From NCBI GenBank assembly GCA_032128875.1, contig JAVLKG010000002.1:352001-416000 (forward strand): a DNA stretch of 64,000 nucleotides. Reading direction: 5' to 3'. Position 1 is the stretch's first letter. The number at the start of each line of letters is the position of its first letter. Shown here in pieces: positions 52,119-56,486 of this stretch. The notes beneath the pieces are model-generated. The model was not told the origin of the DNA and did no database searches. It saw nothing but the letters and a program-made list of their open reading frames with translations. The stretch is from Candidatus Melainabacteria bacterium 17Bon1m (GTDB lineage Bacteria > Cyanobacteriota > Vampirovibrionia > Obscuribacterales > Obscuribacteraceae). A program made the position numbers and the translations under genes.

Positions 52119-53105
52119 TTATACCGTACTGATCAGTTGGTAGACTTCCACCGGTTTTTGCCGGCCTTTTACAGAGAATTGATTGACGTAATTGAACTGG
52201 AAGCGCTCACGTGCCAGGTCGTGAGTTACACCATCGACCCAAATTTCGCCTGCGTGGTCGCTGGTAATCAGCTTTTCTAATCGAAAGACGATATTGGCTG
52301 TGTCGCCAGTGATAGCTTGTCCGGCTCCTGATTGACCGAGCGTACCGGCTGCGACTGGTCCGGTCGCCAGGGCTATATCGACAACGAGCGGATGCTTTTT
52401 GAAGGGCCAAAAATTCGTGTCTTTTGCCAATCTGGCAGTGATAGTACGCATTTGCAAAGCTGTAAGACAGGCTTGGTAGGCTTGTAGCGCCGCGCCTTCT
52501 TTCGAATCGTCGCCGCTCCAGTAAGCCATGATCGCATCTCCGGCGATTTTTTCGAGCTGTCCGTAATGTCTGTGTATTTCTTCGTTTAGTGCGTCAAAAA
52601 CCATTTTCTGAGCGCGCATGACGAGATCTGGCTCGGAAGCATAGGTTTCCATGAGCCCGCTGAAATCGACAATGTCGCCAACCAGAATTGTGGCGTTGAT
52701 TAAGTGAATGCGGAATTGAGTTTTGTCTTGCTCATCTCTGTCCTCATCCATCTCTCTGGCAGCGTTGAAAGGTGGACTGACAAGCAGGTCGTACTGAGCA
52801 ATTTTGACTTTGTCGCCGCTATGCAGAATGTATTCTTTGCCCGGTGTAAGACGCGTGCCGTTCAGCGAGGTGCCATTAGTCGAGCCGTTGTCAACTAGCG
52901 TCCAGCCTTCCTGTGTGCAACGGATTTCGGCGTGCTGACCGGAAACTTCCGGAAATGGCAAAACCAATCGGCGTTTGTCGCCGGCGCCAGGTTTTCGACC
53001 TATCGAAAGGACCTCGCCTTCAACAAGGTCTAGCGACCAGCCGTCCGGTGATTCTGGCAGCACCGTAATGGAGCCGGAAGTCGAATTTTTCCCAACTGAA
53101 GACAA
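52119..53105 (-). CDS. FHA domain - class III nucleotidyl cyclase
   Basis: FHA motifs IGR, VSGQHA and STNGT. Cyclase motifs GDIVDFS, KIAGDAIMA and GDTANIVFRLE. Confidence 0.87.
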   Translation of the reverse strand: MSSVGKNSTSGSITVLPESPDGWSLDLVEGEVLSIGRKPGAGDKRRLVLPFPEVSGQHAEIRCTQEGWTLVDNGSTNGTSLNGTRLTPGKEYILHSGDKVKIAQYDLLVSPPFNAAREMDEDRDEQDKTQFRIHLINATILVGDIVDFSGLMETYASEPDLVMRAQKMVFDALNEEIHRHYGQLEKIAGDAIMAYWSGDDSKEGAALQAYQACLTALQMRTITARLAKDTNFWPFKKHPLVVDIALATGPVAAGTLGQSGAGQAITGDTANIVFRLEKLITSDHAGEIWVDGVTHDLARERFQFNYVNQFSVKGRQKPVEVYQLISTV

Positions 53106-53248: not shown

Positions 53249-54508
<1,260 letters not shown>

Positions 54509-54660
54509 GGCTGTATCTCCTTTGGATATGGCAGTGAAGGTATTTCGAGCCGCTCTAAAATGCAGAGCCTGGCTCAATGCCGGGCAACGGCGCCCGTCTG
54601 CTTCACCAGCCGTGCCATGTTTTTTCTCAAAGCGGGCAAATAAAGCCGTTCTTGAGAACA
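54509..54660 (-). ncRNA. candidate structured cis-regulatory leader (riboswitch-like) of metK
   Basis: 12-bp closing stem with a 6-nt bulge, two internal hairpins, and bulge complementarity to the SD-start spacer (see findings). Confidence 0.5.
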
Positions 54661-54893
54661 AGGCAACTGTCATGCTAGCACCTTTCCATATCTGTACTAG
54701 AGAAAGGAATTAAAGATGCCGCAAAGATGAAGACGATGACTGGCCGGCTGTCGTTCCAGGCAGCTCAAGTCTTAACGTAGGTGTAGCAAATCTGAGCGAG
54801 AACGGCAAAGCATGCCAGATCTGTTGGATAGCAGTGATACCATATAAGGGCCTTGGCGAAACCCCCTATAGAACGTAGATATATCCAACCCCC

Positions 54894-54921
54894 GGAACAC
54901 GTTTGTTCGCCAGCGCGTCAA
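54894..54921 (+). promoter_or_regulatory. ECF-sigma autoregulatory promoter
   Basis: GGAAC-N17-CGTCAA about 30 bp upstream of the ECF sigma start codon. Confidence 0.6.
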
Positions 54922-54948
54922 TGCAATCAATCGTCGAGAGGAGTCGCC

Positions 54949-55575
54949 ATGGCGACAGGCTACAGCCAAAAAAGCGATAGAGACCTTGTACTGGCTTGCC
55001 AGAGGCGTGAGCCCGCGGCATTCGAGGAGCTGGTCAAGCGTCACCAACGCACTGTTTATGCCCTTCTTTACCAATTGGCACCCGATTGGACAGATACGGC
55101 AGATCTTGCCCAAGAAGTGTTTATCAGGGTTTGGAGAAATATCAACAACCTGAGAAATCCATCTTCGTTTCGCTCGTGGCTGACACAGATTGTCACCAAC
55201 ATCTTCTATGACGAGTTGCGTAAGCGTCCTCGTAAGTTGCCAACCGTATCTATGGATGAAGGCATTGACGACGAGGAGGGAAGTGACGGCGCAACCCGCG
55301 ATATTGCCGACACATCCGCCCTCCCCGATGAAAATGTTCTAAGCAAAGAAGTCAACGAAGTCATCCGCGCGGCCATGATGCAACTCCCGGAACAGTTTCG
55401 GACGAGTATCGTCTTAAGGGAAGTGGAGGGTCTCAGTTACGAGGAAATTGCGGTTCTAACAAAGACAGAGATGGGAACCGTAAAGTCGCGAATCGCGAGA
55501 GCCAGATTAAAGCTGCAAGAGATGCTTAAACCGTATCTCGAGAACAGCAACTCGCAAGCTGAAATATCGGGGTGA
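54949..55575 (+). CDS. ECF (sigma-70 group 4) RNA polymerase sigma factor
   Basis: GAGGAG SD, and AFEELV, DLAQEVFIRVW, FRSWL and LREVEGLSYEEIA...GTVKSRIARAR motifs. Confidence 0.93.
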   Translation: MATGYSQKSDRDLVLACQRREPAAFEELVKRHQRTVYALLYQLAPDWTDTADLAQEVFIRVWRNINNLRNPSSFRSWLTQIVTNIFYDELRKRPRKLPTVSMDEGIDDEEGSDGATRDIADTSALPDENVLSKEVNEVIRAAMMQLPEQFRTSIVLREVEGLSYEEIAVLTKTEMGTVKSRIARARLKLQEMLKPYLENSNSQAEISG

Positions 55576-55583
55576 TCGGGGTA

Positions 55584-56486
55584 ATGGTCGAGTCTTGTGA
55601 AAAGTACAGAATGGAGTTGTCGGCGCTGTTAGACGAACAGCTTGACAAACAGCTCAAGACCGAAGTGGAGGGGCACCTTTCCGGCTGTAATGATTGCAGT
55701 CAGGAATTGGACACACTGAAGTCTCTATGCCAATTGATGTCCAATCAATTCGAGCCGGATAATCTGGAAATGCCAGATCTCTGGGCGAAGATGAAAGACC
55801 AGGTGCCGACTGTGTGCCAGGTGATGGACGAAGATTTATCGGCGTATTTGGACGGCGAATTGCCGGCACCGGCTCAAGAAGGTGTCAATGTACATCTAAA
55901 GGAATGTCCGGACTGCCTCGCCAAATTCAAAACGCTCAATACAACCAATCAATTTATTTCGAAGGGATTGGAATTACCGACGGACCATAAAGTAGATCTG
56001 TGGCCGGCGGTTAAGTCGAGACTAAATGAAGACTGTGCTCTTATTCATACGGAGCTGTCTCCATATATCGATCAGGAAGTCGCAACTTTGCGACATCGCG
56101 CCATCACCACGCACCTTACTGATTGTCAGGGGTGCAGAGATGAGTTCAACAGATTATCTAGTGTTGGCGATGCGATAAGAGAACACTATAAGCCGGATAT
56201 CCCGGAAGATTTTGATCTCTGGCCTGGTATCAAGTCTCAACTGCAAGTGGTGCCTTTCACACCGAGGGCTAACAACAATCAGCAGAAGAGCAAGCCTGGT
56301 ATGCGTCGTGCATATTGGATGAGCGCCGCAGCTGCAGTGGTTTTGGGTATCATTGGTTTTGGTAGTTTTTGGCTAATGTCTCCATCAACTTCTTCAATAA
56401 AGACTGTCAGTGCAGAAGACTACTTGATAGAATCGGCACTGACAGAACCAGCCGGCAGTGCTGAGGCGGTCCTCTATGAGTACTAA
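55584..56486 (+). CDS. anti-sigma factor with three zf-HC2 (ZAS) domains and a C-terminal TM helix
   Basis: HLSGCNDC, HLKECPDC and HLTDCQGC, each preceded by C...LSxxxD. TM segment AAAAVVLGIIGFGSFW. Confidence 0.85.
   Translation: MVESCEKYRMELSALLDEQLDKQLKTEVEGHLSGCNDCSQELDTLKSLCQLMSNQFEPDNLEMPDLWAKMKDQVPTVCQVMDEDLSAYLDGELPAPAQEGVNVHLKECPDCLAKFKTLNTTNQFISKGLELPTDHKVDLWPAVKSRLNEDCALIHTELSPYIDQEVATLRHRAITTHLTDCQGCRDEFNRLSSVGDAIREHYKPDIPEDFDLWPGIKSQLQVVPFTPRANNNQQKSKPGMRRAYWMSAAAAVVLGIIGFGSFWLMSPSTSSIKTVSAEDYLIESALTEPAGSAEAVLYEY

Follow-up and report, generated by a model that had tools for sequence, protein, structure and literature searches.

A constant three-way-junction RNA in the metK leader of one genus of Obscuribacter-like Melainabacteria, possibly a SAM-sensing riboswitch of an undescribed class

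Ribosomal-protein autoregulatory leaders are lineage-specific, constitutively folded, multi-helix RNAs that lie next to the Shine-Dalgarno sequence (SD) and carry conserved unpaired bases, and proven riboswitches usually rely on aptamers much more ancient than any single genus. Among the riboswitches that respond to S-adenosylmethionine (SAM), the SAM-III riboswitch, or SMK box, is metK-specific and translational, is known only from one order (Lactobacillales) and has its SD paired to an anti-SD within the ligand pocket, and the SAM/SAH riboswitch is an H-type pseudoknot. In the excerpted account of PMC6411933, SAM/SAH riboswitches occur almost exclusively at metK and only in Rhodobacterales, are thought to have evolved late, and act as translational OFF switches in which ligand binding sequesters the ribosome-binding site. 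SAM-VI, as excerpts of PMC11274715 describe it, is a three-way-junction aptamer of Bifidobacterium metK leaders that acts on translation, and the sequence of its SD is shared with P1 and P3, so that SAM binding sequesters it. By analogy, and as far as these excerpts go, SAM/SAH and SAM-VI provide a precedent for metK-centered riboswitch classes that are restricted to a single lineage.

The window analyzed here, a stretch of 64,000 nt from Candidatus Melainabacteria bacterium 17Bon1m, carries metK on its minus strand, preceded by a leader that is predicted to span ~160 nt (about 54666 to 54509) and to consist of a 5′ domain and a compact three-way junction (Table 1). We conclude that this leader is a functional non-coding cis-regulatory RNA of an undescribed type. 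Like SAM-VI (RF02885), on the excerpted description, it presents a three-way junction in the 5′ UTR of metK within a narrow lineage; unlike SAM-VI, whose SD lies within P1/P3 according to the same excerpts, its SD (54522-54517) is located 7 nt outside P1. It also differs in having a junction domain of ~82 nt and an extra 5′ domain, the two RNAs being set apart by model and description rather than by consensus letters. With SAM/SAH (RF01727), as excerpted, it shares the metK site and the single lineage, but the leader here is a three-way junction that excludes the SD. Unlike in the SAM-III/SMK box, there is no SD/anti-SD pairing in a ligand pocket, and the leader gave no match to that model at E ≤ 10. 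The SAH riboswitch (RF01057) belongs to the same metabolic neighborhood, and its sole alignment to the leader (12.4 bits) is on the opposite strand. Ribosomal-protein leaders, unlike the metK leader, precede genes for RNA-binding proteins, and to our knowledge MetK does not bind RNA.

Table 1. Positions of the metK leader elements and flanking features, numbered within the window.
Feature	Position	Strand	Basis or remark
metK (S-adenosylmethionine synthetase) CDS	53249..54508	minus	ORF list; TTG start 54508-54506
CAGCC, pseudoknot target of the preliminary description (unsupported)	54509..54513	minus	sequence
Shine-Dalgarno AAGGAG	54517..54522	minus	invariant, 14/14; 8 nt before start codon
Three-way-junction domain	54530..54611	minus	window MFE; same fold in 14/14 homologues
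P1	54611-54601 with 54539-54530	minus	continuous P1, 95.0% of cells paired
J1/2 CAGA	54600-54597	minus	invariant, 14/14 sequences
P2 (CGGGC/GCCCG)	54596-54581	minus	100% paired
J2/3 GCA	54580-54578	minus	G[C/U]A across 14 sequences, the sole C/U variation among junction bases
P3, variable hairpin	54577-54545	minus	13 to 38 nt, seven sequence types; base GAG/CUC kept
J3/1 AAUAC	54544-54540	minus	invariant, 14/14 sequences
Lower stem strands of the preliminary description	ATGGCA 54618-54613, TGCCAT 54533-54528	minus	sequence
Upper stem strands of the preliminary description	GTGAAG 54606-54601, CTTCAC 54539-54534	minus	sequence
GAGCC...GGCTC hairpin	54575-54547	minus	sequence
5′ domain	54613..54665	minus	RNAalifold consensus; pair counts
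Outer helix UGCC/GGCA	54665-54662 / 54616-54613	minus	98.2% paired; encloses P0
Hairpin P0 (TTCTCAA/TTGAGAA)	54658-54624	minus	79% paired
CAAGAAYGGC, carried by P0	54654-54645	minus	invariant in 14 sequences
Extended -10 TGCTAGCAT	54672..54680	minus	TGnTAnnnT shared at metK by many of the family's genera
TTTAATTC	54707..54714	minus	family-wide element upstream of -10; regex table, metK upstream regions

The MetK protein aligned from residue 1 at the TTG start in 24 of 24 relatives' loci (tblastn). In the window a longer metK frame of 474 aa opens at an ATG at 54673, inside TGCTAGCATG (ORF list). This in-frame extension is kept in none of 11 relatives of the genus, all of which have stops or another frame upstream of the TTG. 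The P3 arm lengths of the 14 homologues differ by non-multiples of three, so neither strand is coding in that region. From the stops and frame changes of all 11 relatives together with the P3 lengths, it follows that the leader is not translated as part of MetK, in agreement with the untranslated leader assumed in the preliminary description. The same two observations rule out both the 474-aa extension of MetK and an 80-aa plus-strand ORF; a 14-codon ORF from ATG 54618 is missing in most relatives. The gene downstream of metK (52119-53105, minus strand, 143 nt from metK) has a 328-aa product that, judged from the translation alone, appears to consist of an FHA domain followed by an adenylate/guanylate-cyclase-like domain.

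Fourteen distinct leader sequences, which are close kin and not independent of one another, make up alignment A2. A core-pattern search returned 19 loci in genome contigs (11 of known species and 8 chance matches in GC-rich coding DNA) and 13 loci in metagenomes (4 real, 2 of them new sequences); a second, looser pattern returned at least 119 loci, and among the matches listed only those of known species were real. Across 12 genomes, 73 of the 166 leader columns are invariant with a mean pairwise identity of 0.78, against 9 of 170 invariant and a mean of 0.50 at the four-fold degenerate sites of metK. Neutral sites are thus nearly saturated within the genus while the leader is conserved, indicating that it is under strong constraint. 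Even in L012, whose four-fold sites are 41% identical to those of the window, CAGA and AAUAC are invariant, and whereas the P2 loop and the entire P3 arm vary, the junction bases stay constant.

All of the stretches named in the preliminary description were found on the minus strand where it had placed them, and the three-way junction (P1, P2, and P3) that it proposed for the metK leader is real. With a minimum free energy (MFE) of -38.7 kcal/mol (z = -2.74), the window's 91-nt junction segment is equaled by 1 of 200 shuffles. P1/P2/P3 is the MFE structure of all 14 distinct homologues when each junction domain is folded alone, and the junction is also within the whole-leader MFE of all 14. 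Each of the 14 P3 segments forms a hairpin, despite their belonging to seven unrelated sequence types. What did not hold was the register of the lower stem: ATGGCA/TGCCAT is paired in 71.4% of cells across the 14 sequences and displays no compensatory change, versus 95.0% for a continuous P1, which is also the helix of the RNAalifold consensus (GG.UGGUGAAG / CUUCACUGCC in the window). In the window the originally proposed fold reaches -34.7 kcal/mol compared to -38.7 kcal/mol with the continuous P1, and over alignment A2 the whole original model pairs 84.1% of cells versus 91.3% for the alternative model; in controls with slid partners, pairing falls to 34-48% of cells.

It had also been suggested that GGCUG, seen as a bulge in the original fold, forms a pseudoknot onto the ribosome-binding region. 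The complement of GGCTG and CAGCC is perfect in the window and in two further sequences (L002 and L047). Over the 14 sequences the pseudoknot cells are 78.3% paired with zero pairs changed on both sides, pair 64/169 being unpaired in 10 of the 14 and pair 63/170 broken in 4. In shuffled leaders the SD-to-start stretch has a mean of 1.9 five-base complements, with a probability of 0.78 of at least one, and the GGCTG bases are already paired inside the better-supported continuous P1. Since the complement is at the level of chance (P = 0.78), mostly broken in relatives and uncompensated, and since its bases lie inside P1, we do not retain the pseudoknot.

Covariation, which the preliminary description had named as a check, gave a divided outcome. 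The covariation score of 0.116 exceeds that of shuffles (0.096 ± 0.007) and was reached by 1 of 500 of them, but only three pairs changed on both sides, a number that 226 of 500 shuffles also reach. Among individual pairs, P1 pair 67/146 is C-G in eight sequences, U-A in three, and A-U in one; in L012 the P3 base pair is compensated from C-G to U-A, and two further pairs (U-A to A-U and U.G to C-G) extend P3. Statistical support per pair is modest because the 14 sequences are close kin. Of the features generic to riboswitches, a structured 5′ UTR aptamer with covarying helices and a conserved unpaired core was found in these 14 close-kin sequences; in place of an association with the genes of one pathway across many lineages, we found metK and one genus.

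The SD is 7 nt 3′ of the last P1 pair (54530) and outside every junction helix, and this spacing is constant even in L012, the most divergent sequence, despite other letters in its linker. A hairpin AAGG/CCUU that joins the SD and the start is 100% paired across the 14 sequences. Thermodynamic models place most of the SD and start codon in pairs with nearby bases in each of the 14 homologues, and give the SD guanines an unpaired probability of 0.02-0.55. Codons 2-6 of metK (TCT ACC AGA TAT CTA; window 54491-54508) hardly vary at their synonymous positions across the genus, unlike the four-fold sites of metK overall (5% invariant). Folding predicts that these codons pair both to the SD (GGAGAUA with UGUCU.CC) and to the linker (AUAUC with GAUAU).

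To count as a member of any of the 4227 Rfam 15 families, the leader strand had to score no lower with the covariance model than that family's gathering score. No Rfam 15 family was identified on the leader strand at E ≤ 10 in scans of 8 kb or of 211 nt, as the preliminary description had anticipated. The 8-kb scan produced three chance matches, all outside the leader, and the 211-nt scan produced a SAH alignment of 12.4 bits on the plus strand, opposite to the leader (cut-off 37), and a partial REN-SRE match of 10.6 bits over 15 nt (cut-off 41). The likeness to the SAH motif seen earlier in GCCAGGCTC is not supported, the sole match being that 12.4-bit alignment on the wrong strand. In the whole genome, the SAM-I (RF00162) and SAM-II (RF00521) models gave no match, nor did SAM-III (RF01767) and SAM-VI (RF02885) at E ≤ 10; SAM/SAH (RF01727) reached a maximum of 16.9 bits and SAH (RF01057) a best match of 23.5 bits versus a cut-off of 37, none of these at metK. 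SAM-IV, SAM-I/IV, and SAM-V were compared through the all-family scans of the leader region. The metK upstream regions of 20 other genera gave no Rfam match at E ≤ 1. A hammerhead or other ribozyme core, which the junction letters had brought to mind, was rejected because Rfam includes those families and the scans gave nothing. Judged by these model searches, the leader RNA belongs to no described family, and metK is without other recognized RNA control in this genome. The sub-threshold SAH match of 23.5 bits (contig C3:183303-183356, plus strand) contains CAACGGCGCUC and is probably due to chance; no ORF of at least 80 codons starts on the same strand within ~500 nt downstream of it.

The leader element is present as one copy per genome, at metK only, and in one genus (Candidatus Obscuribacter-like). 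By BLAST against 40 relatives, full-length matches were confined to the window's genus (g1), in which 11 of 12 other genomes carry the leader, the genome without a match being 64% complete. A covariance model built from the leader (R1) was used for wider searches. It has a single match in the window's own genome (184 bits; the next is 13 bits), and among 101 genomes of the family it matched the 12 of this genus at 102-195 bits. The remaining 36 genera of the sample yielded no credible match, and six matches of 15.7-17.6 bits were all away from metK. We located metK in 95 of these 101 genomes and, for 80 genomes representing 34 other genera, extracted the 295 nt surrounding its start; the best R1 score in these regions, with filters off, was 11.2 bits and came from the SD region. 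Across the class, R1 matched two of 141 sampled genomes, both of this genus, with one extra match of 18.9 bits in a coding region that is not next to metK; marginal matches (15.7-18.9 bits) were thereby seen in 7 genomes. Read by eye, the metK leaders of other genera range from ~45 to ~190 nt and are unrelated to that of g1, and the nearest genus (g4) retains only an AAGAAYGGCU stretch and a CAGAC-hairpin. Long metK leaders of another kind are found in g34 (L077-L080, L087), with a CCUCCUU...AAGGAG hairpin that mimics SD/anti-SD pairing, and in g49 (L105-L112, L120, L130-L131), where they are ~130 to ~190 nt long with GAAGAAC hairpins and GGUGAGAGCC; none matched Rfam among the 20 loci scanned, and going by their letters, both may be independent regulatory leaders.

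The reading that we favor, at a probability of roughly 0.4, is that the metK leader would sense SAM as a riboswitch of narrow range and undescribed structural class. In this model the constant junction bases (CAGA, GCA, and AAUAC) would form a small-molecule pocket, most plausibly for S-adenosylmethionine, and the element would tune metK translation. The SD would be positioned at the meeting point of the 5′ helix, P1 and the 3′ tail, with the start region forming a small hairpin, and this placement, 7 nt 3′ of P1, suggests that the liganded, rigid junction would hinder 30S binding beside the SD (OFF) by a steric mechanism that involves no pseudoknot. Ligand binding, the identity of the ligand, the direction of regulation and the steric mechanism are all points that we infer. 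P1 is worth ~10 kcal/mol, and with its 5′ strand blocked the MFE is 6.5 to 12.5 kcal/mol higher (10 sequences), so the junction should form without ligand. No alternative pairing common to the homologues was found in whole-leader folds (n = 14) or with the P1 5′ strand blocked (n = 10), a condition under which CCUUC pairs with the SD in 2 of 10 sequences (L003 and L007), and no intrinsic terminator was found in the leader region. With no shared alternative fold, no terminator and the SD outside the junction, a classical secondary-structure switch is not visible, and the effect of a sensor would consequently be steric or tertiary. The very stable P1 and the restriction to one genus likewise speak against a classic switch. 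A speculative alternative would be an exchange between the two P1 registers and among the three GCC/GGC segments. That the leader is a new SAM- (or SAH-) sensing riboswitch class that arose inside this one genus of Obscuribacter-like Melainabacteria is a proposition that we regard as somewhat doubtful.

Several of these properties would also suit a constitutively folded protein operator, bound by a translational repressor or activator or serving the autoregulation exerted by a protein of methionine/SAM metabolism. It would work in the manner of ribosomal-protein leaders, which are rapidly replaced in evolution and peculiar to individual lineages. We rate this as unlikely but as deserving serious weight: P1 is of high stability and the homologues have no alternative fold in common, the element is limited to one genus with unrelated leaders in the neighboring genera, its invariant unpaired bases suit sequence-specific contact with a protein as well as they do a ligand pocket, and the constant 7-nt distance between P1 and the SD is suited to steric competition with the ribosome. 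On the other hand, no candidate protein is known, the site has no second copy in the genome and would therefore require a single-target regulator, and the lineage-restricted, metK-only leader RNAs of PMC6411933 and PMC11274715 sense SAM directly according to the excerpted accounts. A structural 5′ UTR element devoid of sensor function strikes us as improbable, a degree more so than an operator, yet likewise deserves serious weight. It could protect the 5′ end of the mRNA, hold translation at a fixed low level together with the TTG and the SD/start hairpin, or provide a standby platform for the ribosome, roles that are compatible with the UGCC/GGCA helix at the predicted 5′ end, an SD and start codon predicted to be largely paired in every homologue (n = 14), the near-invariant synonymous positions of metK codons 2-6 and the lack of a visible switch when the P1 5′ strand is blocked. 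Stability, however, requires helices, yet it is CAGA, GCA, and AAUAC that are frozen while the loops and P3 drift, and metK leaders of 45 nt suffice in some genera of the family.

The exact arrangement first proposed, a SAM OFF switch in which GGCUG pairs with CAGCC between the SD and start codon, is in our judgment very improbable. Its perfect 5-bp complement in the window, L002 and L047, a fold merely 4 kcal/mol above the MFE and the two P1 registers that could in principle alternate are outweighed by the uncompensated breaks in pairs 64/169 (10/14) and 63/170 (4/14), by the pairing of the loop bases in the continuous P1 and by a complement that is expected by chance (P = 0.78). There is next to no likelihood that the leader is a diverged member of SAM-I/IV, SAM-II/V, SAM-III, SAM-VI, SAM/SAH, or SAH, or part of a longer MetK. 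The weak SAH alignment (12.4 bits) that could be cited for the former is on the wrong strand and far under 37 bits, no family appears at E ≤ 10 on the leader strand, and the six SAM/SAH models searched genome-wide gave nothing over the cut-off and nothing at metK; the 474-aa ORF from ATG 54673 in the window could be cited for the latter, but stops or frame changes interrupt the extension in all 11 relatives.

Were the junction to bind SAM, a new fold would be added to the already unusually diverse SAM aptamers, and it would be the first riboswitch tied to Melainabacteria in the literature that we searched. Those searches returned nothing relevant on Melainabacteria riboswitches, SAM-VII, or Obscuribacter metK, and only known classes in the case of new SAM riboswitch classes. 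A SAM-binding junction would also be a rare test case for the origin of aptamers, as the element is restricted to one genus that is flanked by genera with the same promoter and other leaders; given that g4 keeps only pieces of it and sister genera have unrelated leaders, the family could then show a riboswitch born from an ordinary leader. If the RNA instead proves to be a protein operator or a fixed structural element, it would be an ordinary lineage-specific leader of local interest only.

The leader is preceded by the extended -10 element that the preliminary description had noted just upstream of it, and this motif recurs at metK across many of the family's genera. The -10 hexamers among genera (TAGCAT, TACGAT, TAGTAT, TAAACT, and TAGACT) have T1, A2, and T6 constant, and a consensus scanner reported no sigma-70 pair at the metK extended -10. 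Its position would place the transcription start near 54666. Assembled contigs from RNA libraries of two studies join the leader with the start of the metK coding sequence: one of 453 nt in run X5 (54263-54715) and one of 259 nt in X8 (54393-54650). Such contigs cannot fix a 5′ end, and the end of the X5 contig is ~45 nt upstream of the start expected from the -10. DNA carry-over is possible, so the contigs are weak support for transcription of the leader together with metK. Two other "RNA" runs had contigs of ~100 kb, which are DNA-like and uninformative on transcript ends. The next contig in X5 begins at 54937, leaving the shared intergenic region 54716-54936 uncovered, and the end on the metK side falls exactly at the conserved TTTAATTC.

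The distance from TTTAATTC to the -10 is 11 bp (one helical turn) longer in most g1 genomes than in other genera. The two are parts of a composite element (54672-54724, minus strand; L076-L155) that comprises CTTG, 6 nt, (G)TTTAATTC, ~16 nt, and AAAAGRTGnTAGCAT, and that was found by regex in 52 distinct metK upstream sequences, with 35 loci lacking it. The pair TTTAATT...TGnTAGCAT occurs once in the 7.55-Mb genome, and TGnTAGCAT alone is unenriched (94 copies). The composite element may serve as the operator at which a DNA-binding protein regulates metK. Facing metK are divergent genes for an ECF sigma factor and a zinc-finger anti-sigma-like protein (54853-56486), toward which a second TGnTAnnAT element, TGATACCAT (54835-54843, plus strand), points. 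The sigma/metK arrangement recurs in other genera, where the sigma N-terminus is found, in reverse complement, within the metK upstream regions.
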